Shown here one piece after another: positions 11,837-34,324 of a stretch of 38,028 nt of DNA (the first letter of the stretch is position 1; every line of letters starts with the position of its first letter). Under the pieces are notes generated by a model. It was not told the DNA's origin and searched no databases. It saw only the letters and a list, made by a program, of their open reading frames with translations. Source of the DNA: a virus. The stretch lies in the IMG/VR virus record IMGVR_UViG_3300012668_000254, positions 1-38,028 of that record; one strand, written 5' to 3'. The position numbers were made by a program, and so were the translations under genes.

Positions 11837-11962
11837 TTGAGTAGTTTTTATAATGCTCCATGGCAGAATGATCAAGAGCCGAATAGTGGTAATGTTCGTC
11901 ACTTTTTAGACCAATTATATAGTAAATTCATGCCACTTGAACAAAGTCGCTGGAATCAGAGT
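11837..11962 (+). CDS. Portal protein, exon 1 (42 codons, TTG start)
   Basis: GGAGG sits 5 nt upstream of TTG 11837. Encodes (M)SSFYNAPWQNDQEPNSGNVRHFLDQLYSKFMPLEQSRWNQS, then an in-frame TAA that begins the intron. The last six exon nt, cagagt, pair with gctctg (11971-76), with a U-G wobble at the junction. Confidence 0.7.
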
Positions 11963-12180
11963 TAAGAATTGCTCTGAATAAACCTTCTCTGATTGACTCG
12001 GAAGCCCGATGGGGTGACGAGGGGCAAGTTTAAATACAGCCTGAACGACTGAGCGAGAGGGACTCGGAAACGAGTATGCAACAGTCTGAACACTACGGAT
12101 AACACCAAGGTAGTGAGGGAGATTCGAAGAAGTTTCCCCGCTCACAATATATTGTGAGTCATAAAAGTAACAGATCTCGG
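11963..12180 (+). ncRNA. ORF-less group I intron in the portal gene (about 218 nt)
   Basis: GC-rich structured island in AT-rich DNA. Elements seen: P1 (11957-62 / 11971-76); P3 ccttctc (11983-89) / gagaggg (12055-61); R-like gaacgactga; P8 hairpin actcg-GAAA-cgagt (12062-75); S-like acagtctgaac. The 3' tail ...ctcacaatatattgtgagtcataaaagtaacag is shared with the capsid introns. The exact 3' splice site (after G12180 vs G12173) is inferred from the reading frame. Confidence 0.75.
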
Positions 12181-14208
12181 AATATCGATACGCTTTTCTA
12201 TGCCGGCAACCAGTCTTTTATTAATAGGACTTTGAACAACGGACTCGCCACGTCTTATAAAGATTATTATTTCAATTTAGTTCAACAGCCCGTCAATATG
12301 ATCACAGGTTATGAGCGGCAGCATCGTAAAAACTTCTCTTATGTAGCTACAGAAGGTGCTGATCCTTTAACAACTGATCAATATACTACACTTATAACTC
12401 ACGCAGCCAATCAAGGTTGTATTCACGAACAGAAGTCTAAGGCAAAAGAACTTGCTGCTATATCTGGAATGGTTTTAATGCAACCATATCTTGATTATAC
12501 AGGTGATGACCAAGCTCAAGGAACACTTAAAACTAAGATTTGGGAATATAACTCATTTCTAGTTGACCCTTACTTTCGTAATCCTGATATGTCAGATGCT
12601 CAGTTTGTCTGGTGTCAGGAATATATAAGCAAAAGAGAGGCAGAAGATCGATTTCCAGAAAAACTCAAAAATATTATGCCAATGTCTGGTACACCCCAGC
12701 GTTATGGAAACTTCTATTTTTTACCAGAAAACCATAATATGGCTAGAAATGATCTTATGGTCTTGTCATATGTTTGGTATAAATGGAAAAGGAAAAAGAA
12801 ACGTTTATATAGTAGGTCACGTAATCAATTCTATGATTTTGCAGGTGGTGAAGAAAATCTGGAACAAATCTTATATAATATCGAAGACATGGAAGAAGTT
12901 ACTGTTGATGTCCCATGTTGGAAATTAGCAGTTATTCTAAATGAACAACTTATGTATTCAGGTGAAAATCCACTTGGATTCGATGATTGTCCATTTATAC
13001 CATACTATTGGAACTATGATCCACATATAAATCACTTTGACTTACGTGTGAGATCGTTAATTAGAACTATGCGAGATCCGCAATTCCTTTTTAACTATAA
13101 GGTTATCCAAAATAATGATATCGCTAGCGCGACAATCAATGCTGGATGGAAACGTAAAATAGGAGCAGTTGCAAATGAAGACAACCTTAAGAAAGCCGGT
13201 CAAGGATGGGATGTTATCATTAATGAAGGCTATGAACTTACTGACTGTGAAAAAATTATCCCTAGTGCTGTTCCAGAGTCTGATCTTGCCTTGGCACAAC
13301 AAATGGCTGATCTTATATACAACGTTTCTGGGATTAATTTAGAAAATTGGTCTGGACAGCAAGATAAGCAAATATCATCATTGACTATGATGCTAAAACA
13401 AGCAGCCAATTTGATGGTATTTCAAAAGTATTTTGACCAATGGGATTTTTCAGATAAATTGCTAGGGGATAGACTAATCCAAATTGTATTAAACAATTGG
13501 AATGCAGCCAAAGTTCAACTTTATATTGGTGCTGAACCATCACCTCATTTTTTCAGTAAAGTATTTTGTAAGTTTCAGACAATTGTTGAAGAATCTGACC
13601 TTACACCTACTCAGCAGAACTTGCAAGCATCTCAAATGCTAGACATAAATGAAAAATTTCAAAGAGAAGTTTTTCCTCCATCTATGATCATACCAAAATT
13701 AAATATAACTGGAAAAGCAGAAATAATCCAGTTCTTATCAGAACAAGAGCAGCAAATGCAAGCCGCTCAAGGCGAGGAAATGAACTTGAAGCACACTGTA
13801 GAGGAAGTGCGCCTCAAGGAGATGATGGCGAAAATTCACAACCTTCTTTCACAGGCTCGTGAACGTGATTCTCGTTCAGCCTCAAATGCAGGTTTATTTG
13901 AAGAAAGAATGTCAATGGTCTCACGCAACCACTCAATGGCAACAAAAGACAAAATGGCTGCTCTTGCACAGTTGTTAGAAACTATTCAGAAATTCGGAGA
14001 GGTTGAGACATTCTTAAAATCAAACGAATTGGAAAGTGTTAAACTTGATGAAGAAGAACAAGAAAAAACAGCTCGACAAAATGTTGAGACAACAGAAGCT
14101 TCAAAAGAATTTATGGAACAATTAATGGGTACGATGGGACAATCAGGAAGACAACAAAATTCACAACAACAACAACAACCTATGCAAAATAACCAAATGA
14201 TGATATAA
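12181..14208 (+). CDS. Portal protein, exon 2
   Basis: Continues in frame as NIDTLFYAGNQSF... The 675-aa remainder has a Gln-rich acidic tail, and size and position are typical of a portal. The track ORF start at 12154 (GTG) lies inside conserved intron sequence. Confidence 0.7.
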   Translation, partial: NIDTLFYAGNQSFINRTLNNGLATSYKDYYFNLVQQPVNMITGYERQHRKNFSYVATEGADPLTTDQYTTLITHAANQGCIHEQKSKAKELAAISGMVLMQPYLDYTGDDQAQGTLKTKIWEYNSFLVDPYFRNPDMSDAQFVWCQEYISKREAEDRFPEKLKNIMPMSGTPQRYGNFYFLPENHNMARNDLMVLSYVWYKWKRKKKRLYSRSRNQFYDFAGGEENLEQILYNIEDMEEVTVDVPCWKLAVILNEQLMYSGENPLGFDDCPFIPYYWNYDPHINHFDLRVRSLIRTMRDPQFLFNYKVIQNNDIASATINAGWKRKIGAVANEDNLKKAGQGWDVIINEGYELTDCEKIIPSAVPESDLALAQQMADLIYNVSGINLENWSGQQDKQISSLTMMLKQAANLMVFQKYFDQWDFSDKLLGDRLIQIVLNNWNAAKVQLYIGAEPSPHFFSKVFCKFQTIVEESDLTPTQQNLQASQMLDINEKFQREVFPPSMIIPKLNITGKAEIIQFLSEQEQQMQAAQGEEMNLKHTVEEVRLKEMMAKIHNLLSQARERDSRSASNAGLFEERMSMVSRNHSMATKDKMAALAQLLETIQKFGEVETFLKSNELESVKLDEEEQEKTARQNVETTEASKEFMEQLMGTMGQSGRQQNSQQQQQPMQNNQMMI

Positions 14209-29463: not shown

Positions 29464-29626
29464 TTAAAAGTTTAATTATATACTATAAATTCGTAGGCAT
29501 ACGTTAAATGCATCGCGTAAGAGTGTTTCGCATCACTCGACAAAAGATAATAAAGAAACGACTGTAAGTTAGGCTCGGTCACCGTCTTTATATCACTCCT
29601 TGAACCTCATCTATGAGGTAATAATT

Positions 29627-29917
29627 ATGATTACGACAACAGGGAATTTGGGCCCTATGATCTTGCAGTCGCTTGCGCCTGCCATGTTATACGTTCCTAC
29701 TCCTACAATGAACTATATCACTATAGCAGACAAGGTTTCTATGCCTGCAAATGGTGGTACAACTTGCAGGTTTATGCGTCCACGTGCGCTTACTCCTCCA
29801 ACTATTCAACTTGGTAATGCGGGTATTGATCCCCCAGCCCAAGTGCCTCAAAGAGATATCATAGACGCACAAATGGCGTTTTTTGGAACAGGTGAAGAAG
29901 TTTACTCGTATGAAGTT
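29627..29917 (+). CDS. Major capsid protein, exon 1 (3' boundary approximate, 29911-29923)
   Basis: GAGG RBS. MITTTGNLGPMILQSLAPAML...MPANGGTTCRFMRPRALTPPTIQLGNAGIDPPAQVPQRDIIDAQMAFFGTGEEVYSYEV resembles HK97-fold (N4-gp56/T7-gp10-like) capsid N-terminal halves. The frame stops at 29924-26 with the C-terminal half missing. Confidence 0.7.
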
Positions 29918-29952
29918 TCTGCATAATTGATTTGATCATAATATGTAAACCA

Positions 29953-29961
29953 TGTTATAGT
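29953..29961 (+). promoter_or_regulatory. Extended -10-like TGTTATAGT upstream of the intron-1 endonuclease gene
   Basis: Lies 33 nt upstream of ATG 29994, followed by a GGAAGGA RBS. Weak evidence. Confidence 0.3.
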
Positions 29962-29993
29962 ATGACCAGTAAATTTAAAACTGGAAGGATTTC

Positions 29994-30914
29994 ATGGAAA
30001 GAAGTAAGGAAGATTTAATGTATTCATATGCTGCTGGAGCCATAGATGTCGATGGGTCAATTTACTTAGTAAAAGAAAGTAATTTGCATATCCCATTCAT
30101 TCAGTTGGTGAAAAAATTTGGCTCGCTTATCTCTTCATTTAAAAATGATTTTGGTGGTATGACAGGATCTTTAAAAGCAAGACAGCCTCATCATGCACCA
30201 CTTCATTATTGGAGATTAAAAGGTTCTGAAAATTGCAGAGACTTTCTTTTGAAAGTTGTTCAATTTTTAGTCTATAAGAAGGAAAGGGCTGAAGTTTTGT
30301 CTGAATATATTGAAAAGAATCCATTTGTGAGAGGAAAAACACTTAGCGTTGAACAGTTAATTGAGCGTGAAAAGTACCATGTTAAATTAGGCACATTAAA
30401 TGATGAAGCTTATTTAAAAAACATCTCCATGACAGCAAAAACTCATCAGAATACTTATGATGAGGCTTTTTGGTCATATGTAGCGGGTGTTATGGATACT
30501 GACGGTTCATTTTCTGTAAAAAGACAAAAAGGGCATTCTGAAACAAAAAACCTTCGATATATACCCTGCATTCAAATGTCTATGGCATCCTTAAATGTCA
30601 TAAACCACATAAGAAAAAACTGTATATTTGGTACCGTCTGTGTAGTCAAAAATAAAAGTTGCTCACGTGGGTTTCATTATTCCTGGAGTATTGGTAAGAA
30701 GCAGGATTCTGCTGAATTTATCGAAAAGATTCTTCCTTATTTAAAAGAAAAAAAAGATCAAGCAATGATTCTTTTAGACTTTTGCAAAAATGCAGAAAAC
30801 ACAAAATTTTGCAAAGCAGGGATTTCTGAAAAGGAATTAGAGTTTAGAGAATCATGTTATCAAAAAATTGTAGCATTAAATAAGAGAGGCAGCCTGTTGT
30901 GTGAAACTCAATAA
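29994..30914 (+). CDS. Double-motif LAGLIDADG homing endonuclease
   Basis: Two dodecapeptide motifs: YAAGAIDVDGSIYL and YVAGVMDTDGSFSV. 306 aa. Out of frame with the capsid exon. Confidence 0.9.
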   Translation: MERSKEDLMYSYAAGAIDVDGSIYLVKESNLHIPFIQLVKKFGSLISSFKNDFGGMTGSLKARQPHHAPLHYWRLKGSENCRDFLLKVVQFLVYKKERAEVLSEYIEKNPFVRGKTLSVEQLIEREKYHVKLGTLNDEAYLKNISMTAKTHQNTYDEAFWSYVAGVMDTDGSFSVKRQKGHSETKNLRYIPCIQMSMASLNVINHIRKNCIFGTVCVVKNKSCSRGFHYSWSIGKKQDSAEFIEKILPYLKEKKDQAMILLDFCKNAENTKFCKAGISEKELEFRESCYQKIVALNKRGSLLCETQ

Positions 30915-31241
30915 GGTTAGAGATCACATAAAACTTGGCTATATGCTGGAAACCCCTAAAACCTTCGGTACCTAAATGGTGACAATCTGAAGGATATTAC
31001 AATGGGCAATCAGCAGGGAAGACTCGAAAGAGAACCCTCAACGACTACACGCCAGGCACTCTGTAACCGCAGAAGTGAAGATATAGTCTGAACAGTGGTG
31101 AGAGCCATTGAGAGAGGAATAACAAGACTCTCCGCCTAGAAATAGGTCACAAAAGTAACAGTTAGTGCATTATAAATGAGCAAGTTATTTTGCAAGATCA
31201 AGAGGGTGAAGGACTTACGTTCGAAATGTACGCCCTCTTAG

Positions 31242-31310
31242 CTGTGGCGTAAATTGGTACTAGCTTGGGTATCCGAAAGGTTAGCCGTAGCTATGCGTCA
31301 AGCCGAGGAT
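31242..31310 (+). CDS. Major capsid protein, exon 2 (69-nt mini-exon)
   Basis: The only open frame ending at the P1 junction gives LWRKLVLAWVSERLAVAMRQAED, which continues seamlessly into exon 3 (LLILRDYIV...). This fits the conserved capsid pattern L-G-x-x-x-A-x-x-x-D-x-x-x-x-R-D. The 5' boundary could be 31242, 31245 or 31248. Confidence 0.6.
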
Positions 31311-32134
31311 TAACTTTAAGTCCTCGATAAATCTAACCTGATTGACTTGGAAACCCTTATCACCCGTGTGAAAGGGCAACAAGGGGCAAGTGTTTAATTA
31401 GTATTGTAAGGAATCAAAGTGTTCAATATCTGCTTTAAGAAAACCTTTTGCGTTGAGTCTAGACATCTCAACTCTCATGTCTTCTCGAAGGGCGATGATT
31501 TCGGGATCAAGAGGAGCGTGTGCGCCACATCCTTTTTGATTTTCATAGGACTTTCTAAACTCGATCATAATCTCACATTGTCTTTTCTTAAGAACAAGAT
31601 AAGGCAAAACTTGAGTACAAATGTCGAGAAGACGATGACCTTGAACAACCCATTCATAAATCCATCGCTCATGAGTGGAATTTTTCTTAAAAATAGATCG
31701 CTTATGTTTCTTAGATTTATTGAGATTGCCAAAATGCAACTCAATCCAATCAAAAAGTTCCTTTTTTGTATTAGAAATGTTGAGTACAGCTCTAAAGTTT
31801 GGGTTTTGGTATCGGTTATACTTCGCGGGATTAACACGATAAATACACAAAGAGCCTTCACCATCAATAATACCTGCAAGGTAAGCAAGTATGAGAGGTT
31901 TATAAATCTTTTTTTTGTATTCAATTATAGGCATTCACATTCTCCTTTGTTATGTGTGTAGGTGCGTGTATATTGTTGCATAAAACTAATTAAATGTACA
32001 GCCTGATCGACTTAGCGGTTGGAATGTAGAAATACATATGCGAAAGTCAGAACTCGAACTATAAATAAAATTCGAGAGGGAGATCCGAAGAGGTCACCCC
32101 GCTCACAGTATATTGTGAGTCATAAAGTAACAGG
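31311..32134 (+). mobile_element. Group I intron 2 in the capsid gene, with an antisense LAGLIDADG gene in the P6 loop
   Basis: P1: exon gaggat (31305-10) / gtcctc with a U-G at the junction. P3 ctaacc / ggttgg. P6 extended stem tttaattag (31393-401) / ctaattaaa (31986-94). P8 atgta-GAAA-tacat. The 3' tail ccccgctcacagtatattgtgagtcataaagtaacagg is nearly identical to the portal intron. Confidence 0.75.
31398..31934 (-). CDS. Single-motif LAGLIDADG homing endonuclease, encoded antisense to its host intron
   Basis: YLAGIIDGEGSLCI motif, 178 aa. Own AAGGAG RBS on the minus strand. Its stop codon lies inside the P6 stem. Confidence 0.85.
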   Translation of the reverse strand: MPIIEYKKKIYKPLILAYLAGIIDGEGSLCIYRVNPAKYNRYQNPNFRAVLNISNTKKELFDWIELHFGNLNKSKKHKRSIFKKNSTHERWIYEWVVQGHRLLDICTQVLPYLVLKKRQCEIMIEFRKSYENQKGCGAHAPLDPEIIALREDMRVEMSRLNAKGFLKADIEHFDSLQY

Positions 32135-32740
32135 TTGTTAATTTTACGCGATTACATCGTTTCAGCCGCTTCCGAAATTATGGCCGGTGGTGGTTCAAAT
32201 AATGATAATCCAACTAACCTTGGTATCAGTGATTTTAGCTTAGTTGCTACTACTCTTGATACAAATAACGCTTATAAGTTTATGAGTGGTATTGAAGGTA
32301 TGGATAGATTCGGTACAGGTCCTGTTAGATCAGCATATTTTATGCTATCGTCTACAGAATTGCAAACCGATTTTGATGGATTAGTAGGCCAAGGGTTTAA
32401 AAACCAATGGGACTATCCAACAAATGCTAGTGCTTTGCCATCTGAGTATGGTTCTGTATTTAACGTACGTATTTTGACATCGTCAGAGGCTCCTGTAGCT
32501 CGTGGTGCATCTGCTAATGGTCAGGATGTTTACTATAATACCGTTGCTGGTAAGCAAGCATTGACACACGTAAATCAAGATGGATACTCAATGAATCTGA
32601 TTTATCGTGACCCATATTATTCAGGAATGTTGGCTCAAAATGCGACTTTAGCAGTTAAATTTGCTCAAGCTCAAGCTTTGACTCAAGATACAGCGATCAG
32701 AAACCTATTATCAACACGTTTAGCAGTATTAAATTACTAA
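32135..32740 (+). CDS. Major capsid protein, exon 3
   Basis: Has no start codon or RBS of its own; the track's TTG is fortuitous. LLILRDYIVSAASEIMAGGG...VFNVRILTSSEAP...ATLAVKFAQAQALTQDTAIRNLLST resembles C-terminal halves of HK97-fold capsid proteins. Confidence 0.75.
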   Translation: MLILRDYIVSAASEIMAGGGSNNDNPTNLGISDFSLVATTLDTNNAYKFMSGIEGMDRFGTGPVRSAYFMLSSTELQTDFDGLVGQGFKNQWDYPTNASALPSEYGSVFNVRILTSSEAPVARGASANGQDVYYNTVAGKQALTHVNQDGYSMNLIYRDPYYSGMLAQNATLAVKFAQAQALTQDTAIRNLLSTRLAVLNY

Positions 32741-32749
32741 GGAGATAAT

Positions 32750-34324
32750 ATGGCTGAATATTCAAGATTAGCGAGTGGACAAGTTACGTCGACCGGTGGA
32801 GATACTACTATTGTACTCCCGTTTATTCCTGATTTCGTAGAGATTTCAAACAAAAACTCTGCGGTTAATGGAAGAGGTGTTTATAGAGCATGGTGGAATA
32901 CCGACCAAGGTCTAGGGTCTGCATTTTTAGAAAGTGTAACTACTGGATCAGGTGGTAATTATGGTTATGTTTACACATTAACACAAGCCGGAACCGTTGC
33001 TATTGGCGGTGATGTTATATGGAATAATGCAATCGGTCAGGCTTCAGGCGTTTCCGTTGCAGTAGGTACAGGTAATATTACTGTAGCTAATGCTGGAGTG
33101 TATAAAATACAGTTTCAGTTAGCAGGTTCAGAGCCAAATCAATTTGCTATTACTGTTAATGGCGTTGTTCAAACAAACGCTATTTATGCATCAGGTGCAG
33201 GAACACAACAGACAACTGGAGAGGCTATTTTATCATTGCCTGCTGGTGCTGTTGTTACAATACGTAACAACCTATCAACAGGTGCTATTACTTTAGCTCC
33301 AACTGTTGGTGGTACTGCAAACCAAGCAATGGCTTCAGTAGCAATTAACCAAGTTGGTGCAACTGGTGGCGATACTGTTGGTTATATTGACGTTATCGGT
33401 GGAACAAGTTCTGCTGGTTTAGTCAATGGAACTGGATTTAATGTAGTTAAAGCAGGTTTATCTTTACAATATGGTCCAACTGTATTGCTAGGTGCATCCG
33501 GTGGTATTACTAATAATGCTACAGCTCCTGTTATTACAACATCTGCTGCTCATAATTTAGTGGTTGGTAATGTAGTTGTGTTCTCTAACTTGTATCAGAC
33601 AGCGTCAACTGGTATGCAGCAAATTGCTGGTATTCCATTTGAAGTTCAAACTGTGCCAAGTGCGACAACATTTACTATTAACTGGAATACAAACCAAGCC
33701 AATTATACTGCCATTGCAACGGGTGGTTTAAATACCTTGGCATCGTTTAAAAAAGTTCTTTATCCTGCGCTTTATGCACCGGGTCAAGCATTTATTTCTG
33801 CGATTACATTGGGTGCAACTACAACAATTCAGACAACAGCACCATCAAACGTGGTTGTTGGTCAAGAAGTTGGATTCCACATCCCTACAGTTTGGGGACC
33901 AACAGGATTGAATGAGTTACCTAATGTGTTGATTCCGGGATCACCTAAGTATGGGTATGTGGTATCTGTCACTAACAGCACAACATTTGTTGTCAATATT
34001 GATAGTACGCTTTTCAGTGCTTATAATAGCAACAAACCATTCGCTTCATTCTCCGGTCAACAATTCCCTGTTGTTGTTCCTGTTGGTGATGTTAACACTG
34101 GTGGACTACAAATAAGTGTTGGAAGCCAACTATATCCGTCACCAAATGTTTATAATGGATTCCAAGGAAGCATTACTGCCCCGGTAGGTACTATCAACGG
34201 GCCAGCTATAAATGGAAGTTACATCAACGCTACCTTTATGGGAGTGATAGTAGGATCAGGGGTTTCTGGTGCATTAGGAGATAAGTTATTCTACAGGGCC
34301 TATATGTCAGATATTAACAGGTAG
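32750..34324 (+). CDS. Capsid-associated fibre or decoration protein with a BclA/C1q-like jelly-roll insert and FCCH-like domains
   Basis: AGGAG RBS directly after the capsid gene. NAGVYKIQFQLAGSEPNQFAITVNGVVQTNAIY...GEAILSLPAGAVVTIRNNLSTGAITL matches the BclA C-terminal (C1q/TNF-like) pattern. VITTSAAHNLVVGNVVVFSN and ISAITLGATTTIQTTAPSNVVVGQEVGFHI are FCCH-like. Confidence 0.65.
   Translation: MAEYSRLASGQVTSTGGDTTIVLPFIPDFVEISNKNSAVNGRGVYRAWWNTDQGLGSAFLESVTTGSGGNYGYVYTLTQAGTVAIGGDVIWNNAIGQASGVSVAVGTGNITVANAGVYKIQFQLAGSEPNQFAITVNGVVQTNAIYASGAGTQQTTGEAILSLPAGAVVTIRNNLSTGAITLAPTVGGTANQAMASVAINQVGATGGDTVGYIDVIGGTSSAGLVNGTGFNVVKAGLSLQYGPTVLLGASGGITNNATAPVITTSAAHNLVVGNVVVFSNLYQTASTGMQQIAGIPFEVQTVPSATTFTINWNTNQANYTAIATGGLNTLASFKKVLYPALYAPGQAFISAITLGATTTIQTTAPSNVVVGQEVGFHIPTVWGPTGLNELPNVLIPGSPKYGYVVSVTNSTTFVVNIDSTLFSAYNSNKPFASFSGQQFPVVVPVGDVNTGGLQISVGSQLYPSPNVYNGFQGSITAPVGTINGPAINGSYINATFMGVIVGSGVSGALGDKLFYRAYMSDINR

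Follow-up and report, generated by a model that had tools for sequence, protein, structure and literature searches.

A core-less mini-intron in the major capsid gene of an uncultured phage, probably removed by the group I ribozyme of the next intron downstream

Main finding

The DNA analysed here, referred to as the window, is the whole of positions 1 to 38,028 (38,028 nucleotides, nt) of IMG/VR virus record IMGVR_UViG_3300012668_000254. It carries a major capsid gene of the N4-gp56 family that is divided into four exons by three interruptions. The outer two, introns 1 and 2, belong to a single phage-specific family of autonomous group I introns, and the one between them is a mini-intron of only 49 nt which has the splice-site pairings of a group I intron and no catalytic core. 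We put the probability at roughly 0.6 that the four-exon precursor is matured by three RNA splicing events in which the core of intron 2, acting in cis, removes the mini-intron as well as its own intron. A first-pass annotation of the same DNA had described three exons, two interruptions and two self-splicing events; it had overlooked the segments 31166–31207 (CIINEQVILQDQEG) and 31208–31256, and two such events are insufficient since the second of these segments is the core-less insert. Its wider claim, of an essential late gene with closely spaced, endonuclease-bearing group I introns, is borne out by the exon map, by Rfam and by homologues, and because an essential late gene is interrupted in this way, capsid synthesis depends on RNA splicing. 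The features concerned are the following (aa, amino acids; E, expectation value; identities are to the intron-less homologue P0002):

29627–29893, plus strand: capsid exon 1, aa 1–89 (29630–29893 corresponds to aa 3–90 of P0002, 91% identity)
29894–31165, plus strand: intron 1, group I, 1272 nt, ending in G31165, matched by RF00028
29994–30914, plus strand: double-motif LAGLIDADG homing endonuclease gene, 306 aa (PF00961, phrog_5046)
31166–31207, plus strand: capsid mini-exon 2a, CIINEQVILQDQEG, 42 nt (aa 91–104 of P0002, 100% identity)
31208–31256, plus strand: core-less mini-intron, 49 nt, terminal G31256
31241–31251, plus strand: 5' strand of helix Px in the mini-intron tail (G31244 bulged), pairing with exon 2b at 31294–31303
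31257–31310, plus strand: capsid mini-exon 2b, VLAWVSERLAVAMRQAED, 54 nt (aa 105–122 of P0002, 100% identity)
31311–32137, plus strand: intron 2, group I by family fold and profile, 827 nt, ending in G32137
31398–31934, minus strand: single-motif LAGLIDADG gene, 178 aa, LAYLAGIIDGEGS (phrog_5046, E 1e-22)
32138–32740, plus strand: capsid exon 3, aa 123–321 and stop (32138–32731 corresponds to aa 123–320 of P0002, 94% identity)

Exon map and relatives of the capsid gene

The exon map was obtained by comparing P0002 with the window by tblastn. The four pieces of the match adjoin exactly along the protein, and when 29627–29893, 31166–31207, 31257–31310 and 32138–32740 are joined they give a 966-nt frame coding for 321 aa, not the 322 aa calculated before. 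The interruptions, of 1272, 49 and 827 nt, are each preceded by U and each have a terminal G. Exon 1 starts with the ATG at 29627, which has GAGG upstream, and its last base is U29893; the open reading frame (ORF) that begins there is capsid-like for its first 89 codons and continues with unrelated sequence to the stop at 29924–29926, so the previously described ORF from 29627 to 29926 is present, and is not as a whole an exon, since the capsid match ends at 29893. The start-less C-terminal capsid ORF ending at 32740 was correctly recognised (it belongs to phrog_1357, major head protein), and its exon begins at 32138 rather than 32135, which gives the junction ...QAED/LILRDY (a slash marks a site of interruption). 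The "69-nt mini-exon" proposed for 31242–31310 contains a true exon, VLAWVSERLAVAMRQAED, preceded by 15 non-coding bases, and the real mini-exons measure 42 and 54 nt.

The spliced 321-aa protein aligns with P0006 at 92% identity over 319 residues, gap-free, and it is this full-length, gap-free similarity to family members that places it in the N4-gp56 type; the PF25209 score of the protein itself, 16.6, is below the cut-off of 27. A query made of exons 1 and 3 retrieved more than 1000 homologues, some of them named N4-gp56 family major capsid protein or carrying PF25209. The best 120 are mostly 321–325 aa long with identities of up to 84%. Across the interrupted segment the homologues read ...FFGTG-CIINEQVILQDQEG-VLAWVSERLAVAMRQAED-LILRDY..., and intron-less homologues align without gaps at all junctions. 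Among the GenBank phages of INPHARED, BLAST with the region and with exons 1 and 3 found no capsid relative and gave only matches of about 100 nt to group I cores of Acinetobacter, Bacillus and Thomasclavelia phages. The 2.2 kilobases (kb) between the outer exons had also been described as GC-richer than the rest of the genome; the guanine-plus-cytosine fraction is high only in the ribozyme cores (0.43), compared with 0.34 in the intron ORFs and about 0.40 in the capsid exons and the next gene.

The 49-nt insert has group I splice-site pairings and no core

The insert cannot be translated as part of the capsid, because its length is not a multiple of three and shifts the frame, and because it has an in-frame TAA at 31250. 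Read-through by means of a +1 shift at GCG-TAA was rejected as well: it would lack slippery re-pairing, the relatives' in-frame inserts also contain stops, and it is implausible that a segment which is 100% conserved should accept 16 additional aa.

The pairings expected around group I splice sites are all found. The end of exon 2a (31200–31207, AAGAGGGT) pairs with a guide at 31232–31239 (GCCCTCTT) over 8 base pairs (bp) with a U.G pair at the splice site (helix P1a), the guide GTAC at 31228–31231 pairs with the first four bases of exon 2b (31257–31260; P10a, 4 bp), and the insert ends in G. An own catalytic core, with helices P3–P8 and a G-binding P7, is not found in the 49 nt, as only 17 nt (31240–31256) follow the guide, and for want of that core the insert is not classed as an autonomous group I intron.

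This element is a recurrent one. In contigs from IMG/VR and from JGI/ENA, many of them 36–42 kb long, we found 57 distinct variants at the same site, between aa 104 and 105 of the protein, and these are either 30–67 nt long or 950–990 nt long with a double-motif LAGLIDADG gene in the loop. Many of the 30–67-nt elements are not multiples of three, and all those read out contain in-frame stops. All share one layout: AAGAGGGU at the end of the exon is paired with GCCCUCUU in P1a, with U.G at the splice site; the 4–5 bases 5' of this guide are complementary to the start of exon 2b and form P10a with it; and a tail of 15–18 nt with a final G follows, the last base being G in all mini-intron variants read out. 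The shortest element, of 30 nt, is made of a 6-nt loop, an 8-nt guide and a 16-nt tail, and in the long forms virtually all of the added length is the endonuclease gene in the P1 loop; between them, these two observations leave no space for a core. The glycine codon before the site is GGT in 32 of 32 element-bearing genes, compared with GGC in 39, GGT in 25, GGA in 17 and GGG in 3 of 84 uninterrupted genes. Over 19 distinct variants, P1a, P10a, Px and P1b (the P1 helix of intron 2) are 95.9% paired, with compensatory changes, as against 37–52% in slid controls. In P10a the covariation runs through AACAC with GUGUU, AAUAC with GUAUU, and GUAC with GUAC. The last four bases of the mini-intron were also checked for a P9.0-type signal shared with the partner intron; they are identical in 7 of 17 loci, which is uninformative because AAUG is the commonest ending in both kinds of intron.

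The long forms (L096, L098, L102, L112, L113, L117 and L118–L129) have their LAGLIDADG gene either intact or decayed, and it stops just before the guide. Two loci with elements of 325 nt (L103) and 93 nt (L124) look like deletion intermediates on the way to the 30–67-nt forms, several of which keep a ...GCATAA stop-codon remnant. Insert sizes in general are bimodal, 20–100 nt and at least 180 nt, with none in between.

Several explanations other than splicing by a neighbouring core have to be weighed against these data. That the insert might be a dead remnant or an assembly artefact, in the capsid pseudogene of a defective genome, is suggested by the uncultured origin of the window, and is hardly credible given the number of distinct variants from independent metagenomes, many on contigs of 36–42 kb, the exons that are 100% conserved as protein with synonymous changes, and the compensatory changes that maintain three helices. 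The insert might instead be a minimal ribozyme in its own right which borrows parts of its 3' exon, as in the 56–81-nt introns of fungal ribosomal DNA (rDNA), which share P1, P10 and an intron–3' exon pairing, and one of which was reported to splice in vitro (PMC3160393). We consider this very unlikely: a P7 or other G-binding helix cannot be drawn, functional-looking variants go down to 30 nt, and nothing would explain why the element, as described below, strictly accompanies a full intron and pairs beside it.

A third alternative is that the 49 nt stay in the messenger RNA (mRNA) and are passed by a ribosomal hop, of the kind known from T4 gene 60 and from the bypass elements of yeast mitochondria. 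The size (30–67 nt), a possible take-off hairpin (P1a) and the preceding glycine codon are all similar. A gene 60-type bypass needs matched take-off and landing codons and a stop after take-off, and neither is found here: no landing codon matches the take-off GGU, the gap ending in UUG in the window and in AUG, UAG, AAG or ACG in relatives, and the codon after take-off is GAA. A hop of this type is rejected on the missing landing codon. Moreover, hopping gives no function to the complementary changes in P10a and Px or to the invariant U and terminal G. These are signatures of RNA splicing and, together with the P1a pairing, of group I splice-site selection; we regard ribosomal hopping as highly improbable. 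The same can be said of removal by proteins, that is, by an endonuclease and an RNA ligase as for archaeal bulge-helix-bulge introns. Such introns can be as short as this one and are linked with LAGLIDADG genes in archaeal ribosomal RNA (rRNA). In the minimum-energy fold of 31193–31331 (−48 kcal/mol, z = −3.7), the helices P1a, Px and P1b directly adjoin one another, and there is no bulge-helix-bulge, on which ground an intron of that kind was rejected; in addition, the 5' splice site lies at the U.G end of an 8-bp helix, and the neighbours are group I introns.

Helix Px ties the mini-intron to the next intron

The 3' strand of Px (31294–31303) directly adjoins the 5' strand of P1b (31304–31310), so that the tail of the mini-intron is paired with exon 2b immediately beside the P1 of intron 2. 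In the relatives the tail follows the synonymous choice of an arginine codon, with GGCGC where the codon is CGC, GACGU with CGU, GUCUY with AGA and CUGCA with CGG, and tail duplexes average −13.7 kcal/mol with their own exon as against −9.0 kcal/mol with the other exon types. Where the downstream intron is located at aa 117, 118/119 or 120/121 instead of 122/123, the tail changes and Px again abuts the P1 of that intron, as illustrated by GGCGAGA with UCUCGCC versus GGCUAGA with UCUAGCC, and by AUAGCUA with UAGCUAU versus AUAGAUA with UAUCUAU. For 36 of 42 distinct mini-introns, the best duplex between tail and exon ends 4–7 nt from the next 5' splice site.

The association with a full intron is equally regular. 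Every one of the 80 loci that have the 104/105 element and enough sequence (57 distinct) has a full intron 38–54 nt downstream, although the scans for the element set no requirement for a downstream intron. All mini-inserts for which sequence is available are followed by an insert of at least 180 nt within 7–34 codons; the full intron always lies 21–102 nt downstream of the mini-intron, and an upstream intron is often absent.

These observations also bear on the possibility that the mini-intron is removed by group I chemistry in trans, by any excised ribozyme of the family (intron 1, intron 2 or the portal intron described below), with Px only presenting the substrate or ordering the folding. 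Group I cores recognise P1 mainly by its shape and its U.G pair, and the window has at least three full introns of one family; moreover, engineered spliceozymes do remove introns in trans (PMC4094466). A diffusible ribozyme would not, however, be expected to leave a full intron always 21–102 nt downstream with upstream ones dispensable, nor to keep Px invariably beside the P1 of whichever intron follows, with a shift in position where that intron lies elsewhere. We therefore regard removal in trans as unlikely, and take the core of intron 2, acting in cis, as the preferred agent.

Three further, independent families of mini-introns, 33–79 nt long and with their own P1 and P10 guides, were found at aa 88/89 (L086, L090, L106, L109), 92/93 (L097, L099, L100, L104, L108, L111) and 114/115 (L105, L109, L114, L115), and here too the tail is paired beside the P1 of the full intron that follows. 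Three of these mini-introns have a different partner intron, at 97/98, and their tail pairings (GUUGAUAAC with GUUAUCAAC, AUUGAUGAU with AUCAUCAAU, GUUGAUGAU with AUCAUCAAC) had been predicted from the model before those three loci were inspected.

Introns 1 and 2 and their LAGLIDADG genes

Intron 1 is a group I intron, matched by RF00028 at 79.2 bits (cut-off 50, E 1e-18) over 30848–31110 and over the full model (1–253). Its P1 is formed by 29887–29893 (AACAGGT) and the guide 30892–30898 (GCCTGTT), 7 bp with U.G at the 5' splice site, and its P10 by 30889–30891 and 31166–31168. The junction is exact with respect to the homologues: GTG/CII reads as in intron-less genes and the frame is restored. 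The 306-aa gene sits in the P1 loop, as follows from the pairing of AACAGGT with GCCTGTT, and its 3' end overlaps the guide sequence. Its product scores 28.4 bits with PF00961 (cut-off 23.1), matches phrog_5046 (E 4e-26) and has the motifs YAAGAIDVDGS and YVAGVMDTDGS.

Two sets of R-like and S-like core motifs had been reported for the region. One set is indeed there, in the core of intron 1 (AACGACTA and AAGATATAGTC), and intron 2 has CGACTT/AAGTCAG in their place. Intron 2 was characterised through its relatives: a pattern scan of IMG/VR for its 5' end gave 33 capsid loci with an intron at aa 122/123, of 201–891 nt and with a conserved 3' end GGTCAYAAAAGTAACAGNNTG. The family fold was derived from seven ORF-less members (201–223 nt), which were aligned and folded with RNAalifold, the P7 pseudoknot being added afterwards. 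RNAalifold gave P1, P3, P4, P5, P6, P8 and three P9 helices; with P7, the fold has 52 pairs which are 93% paired, compared with 34–48% in slid controls, and 22 of them show compensatory changes, a result equalled by 0 of 500 shuffles. An nhmmer profile built from the same alignment matches intron 2 at 31302–31392 (E 3.5e-15) and 31998–32142 (E 1.3e-18), and also the 3' half of intron 1 (31028–31166, E 6e-9).

The corresponding helices could be located in the window. P1b pairs 31304–31310 with 31320–31326 (CGAGGAT with GTCCTCG, U.G at the 5' splice site), and P10b pairs 31316–31319 with 32138–32141 (TTAA with TTAA); in relatives, read by eye, the P10 guide varies together with the first bases of exon 3. 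The core comprises P3 (31332–31338 with 32017–32023), P4 (31346–31349 with 31387–31390), P7 (32009–32013 with 32044–32048), P8 (32024–32028 with 32033–32037, GAAA loop) and P9 (32053–32058 with 32071–32076), with about 600 nt inserted in the P6 loop. From the family fold, the profile matches and these helices it follows that intron 2 is a group I intron, as its family's covariation and its homology to intron 1 indicate at the sequence level.

Of the two LAGLIDADG genes announced by the first-pass annotation, both exist as LAGLIDADG-type ORFs, the second one on the minus strand, antisense to intron 2 and to the late capsid transcript. This 178-aa ORF lies in the P6-loop insert of intron 2. It reaches 15.6 bits with PF00961, below the cut-off of 23.1, but has the motif LAYLAGIIDGEGS and belongs to the same phrog_5046 family as the ORF of intron 1. 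An antisense LAGLIDADG protein in the same intron is shown by sequence in three relatives (L089, L092, L104), and four others (L097, L100, L108, L110) have antisense ORFs of matching size and position there. The sense ORF at 31419–31961, an almost full-length mirror of the antisense gene, is probably a shadow ORF.

A fourth intron of the family, ORF-less and 218 nt long (11963–12180, plus strand), interrupts a P22-like portal gene, whose exon 1 runs from a TTG over 11837–11962 (42 codons) and whose exon 2 starts at 12181. Its P1 pairs TCAGAGT with GCTCTGA, with U.G, and it ends in G12180. The family profile matches it at 11971–12175 (E 4e-36), and Rfam at gathering threshold is silent.

Inserts elsewhere in related capsid genes

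Related capsid genes (L082–L129 and L130–L222) have full-size inserts at roughly 30 or more approximate positions, with a maximum of six interruptions in one gene (L082), and 70 of the 132 full-length genes fetched are uninterrupted. Among the 80 closest IMG/VR relatives, 8 (L066, L070, L075–L080) have a single insert of about 210–245 nt near aa 22–31; these are presumably ORF-less introns at yet other sites. The serine, arginine and leucine codons of exon 2b switch jointly, between the GGTCAGCGAAAGACTGGCC or GTGAGTGAAAGACTCGC types and GGTATCCGAAAGGTTAGCC, and a hairpin GGTCAG...CTGGCC in this exon covaries in some lineages, while the form in the window, TATCC...GGTTA, is without it. The joint switching suggests an extra hairpin with a GAAA-containing loop inside exon 2b of some lineages, which does not extend to the window.

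Proposed mechanism

The comparisons above directly show how the exons are arranged, that introns 1 and 2 are of group I, and that P1a, P10a and Px are conserved and covary. From their arrangement we infer that the chemistry of mini-intron removal would be that of group I introns, with the core of intron 2 supplying it in cis. The 49-nt insert would then be a group I substrate module without a ribozyme, consisting of a P1 guide, a P10 guide, a terminal G and the Px tail. The order P1a – Px – P1b – AUAAA – P3...P9 would correspond to the connectivity P1 – P2 – P2.1 – core of ordinary group I introns, which would place the 3' splice site of the mini-intron in an "L2" loop closed by Px. The core of intron 2 would dock P1a, and guanosine would attack after U31207; G31256 would take the place of the guanosine in the G-site, and P10a would align exon 2b so that exons 2a and 2b are ligated. 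P1b would dock next, and intron 2 would splice normally. Skipping of exon 2b should be disfavoured because the two P10 guides differ (GUAC for exon 2b, UUAA for exon 3). One may speculate that Px stacked on P1b holds back the docking of P1b until the mini-intron is gone; the tether could in addition impose a fixed sequence of events, in which the upstream element is spliced before the downstream one.

More generally, we lean slightly towards the view that in this family one natural group I ribozyme removes two intervening sequences, and that core-less "satellite" introns parasitise the core next downstream. With the same slight preference, we would describe these satellites as keeping only P1, P10, the terminal G and the Px tether, some of them together with a homing endonuclease gene of their own.

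A number of points weigh against this interpretation. Splicing of all three elements, and its being guanosine-dependent self-splicing, is what we infer from sequence comparison, and the literature searched yielded no natural precedent for a core that accepts another P1 in addition to its own, nor for a G upstream of the core serving as terminal G. RF00028 gives no match to intron 2 at E ≤ 10 in 29500–32900, and Rfam finds nothing in the region beyond intron 1, so the Rfam check proposed by the first-pass annotation succeeded for one intron and failed for the other; members of the family in related loci are without an RF00028 match as well. In the window, the tail has a rival pairing to 31283–31291 which, in isolation, is more stable than Px (−12.9 vs −11.0 kcal/mol); the window and the loci L089 and L092 share such an alternative duplex, slightly stabler and about 17 nt from the splice site, and because of it Px is less certain in the sub-lineage of the window than the family pattern is. 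The loci are related, mini-intron and neighbour are only 54 nt apart, and their co-occurrence could partly reflect linkage or co-conversion. The IMG/VR and JGI contigs overlap, and the co-occurrence at sites 88 and 92 is biased because those loci were retrieved for their 122/123 intron.

As a separate observation on detection, RF00028 at gathering threshold found no introns of the family in 11 related loci (127 kb, L082–L106), and a 204-nt example gave no match at E ≤ 10. Since Rfam misses the family and gene callers split the capsid and portal genes, such phages are systematically mis-annotated in metagenomes.

If one core does serve at least two introns, group I introns can lose their core and yet persist by means of a neighbour, even with a homing endonuclease gene. 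Introns would then have a new way to degenerate, and genetic parasitism a new level. There would also be a precedent in nature for group I ribozymes that work on a P1/P10 substrate other than their own, with relevance to RNA engineering (spliceozymes, trans-splicing, circular RNA). A shared core would also account for the presence of as many as six interruptions in an essential capsid gene, and would provide a group I counterpart of the degenerate group II and III introns that need outside help, and a natural analogue of spliceozymes.

Comparison with known systems

Phage genes with several introns and homing endonucleases include orf142 of Staphylococcus phage Twort, which has three introns, and td, nrdB and nrdD of T4. 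As in those genes, endonuclease-bearing group I introns here crowd conserved parts of an essential phage gene, with U before the 5' splice site, a terminal G, P1/P10 guides and a risk of exon skipping. The differences are that one of the three interruptions lacks a ribozyme core, that the family is missed by RF00028, that one endonuclease gene is antisense, and that the capsid relatives have up to six interruptions per gene.

In T4 gene 60, a 50-nt gap is passed by programmed translational bypassing. In both systems a phage ORF is broken, after a glycine codon, by about 50 non-coding nt that lie in a hairpin; the capsid gap has no matched landing codon and no adjacent stop, and the covariation of its RNA pairings points to splicing. 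Composite group I arrangements, including an endonuclease gene, are also known as twin-ribozyme introns, twintrons and side-by-side introns from Didymium and fungal mitochondria, but these have a core in each module and no exon between the modules. Multi-intron phage genes and endonuclease-bearing group I introns were thus already known, and what would be novel, and is unproven, is the shared-core mechanism suggested by the sequences. Neither core-less phage mini-introns tethered to, and apparently served by, a neighbouring intron nor this capsid family with its many introns turned up in the literature searched.

Degenerate group I introns of 56–81 nt with P1, P7, P10 and an intron–3' exon pairing have been described in fungal rDNA and were proposed to act alone (PMC3160393). 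Like the phage elements they are tiny, keep P1 and P10, lack most core helices and pair with the 3' exon. They are located in rRNA and drawn with a P7, whereas the phage ones have no P7 and are located in a protein-coding gene, their tail pairs exactly beside the P1 of a complete intron 21–102 nt downstream, and some have an endonuclease gene in the P1 loop. Another parallel is provided by spliceozymes, which are group I ribozymes of Tetrahymena engineered to cut an intron out of a pre-mRNA separate from themselves (PMC4094466, PMC4509937), and in which a group I core likewise removes an intervening sequence that is not its own through P1- and P10-type pairings at the two splice sites. Spliceozymes are artificial, act in trans and carry the guides on the ribozyme, while in the capsid gene it is the mini-intron that bears the guides, and the ribozyme would be a natural one, the neighbouring intron, acting in cis.

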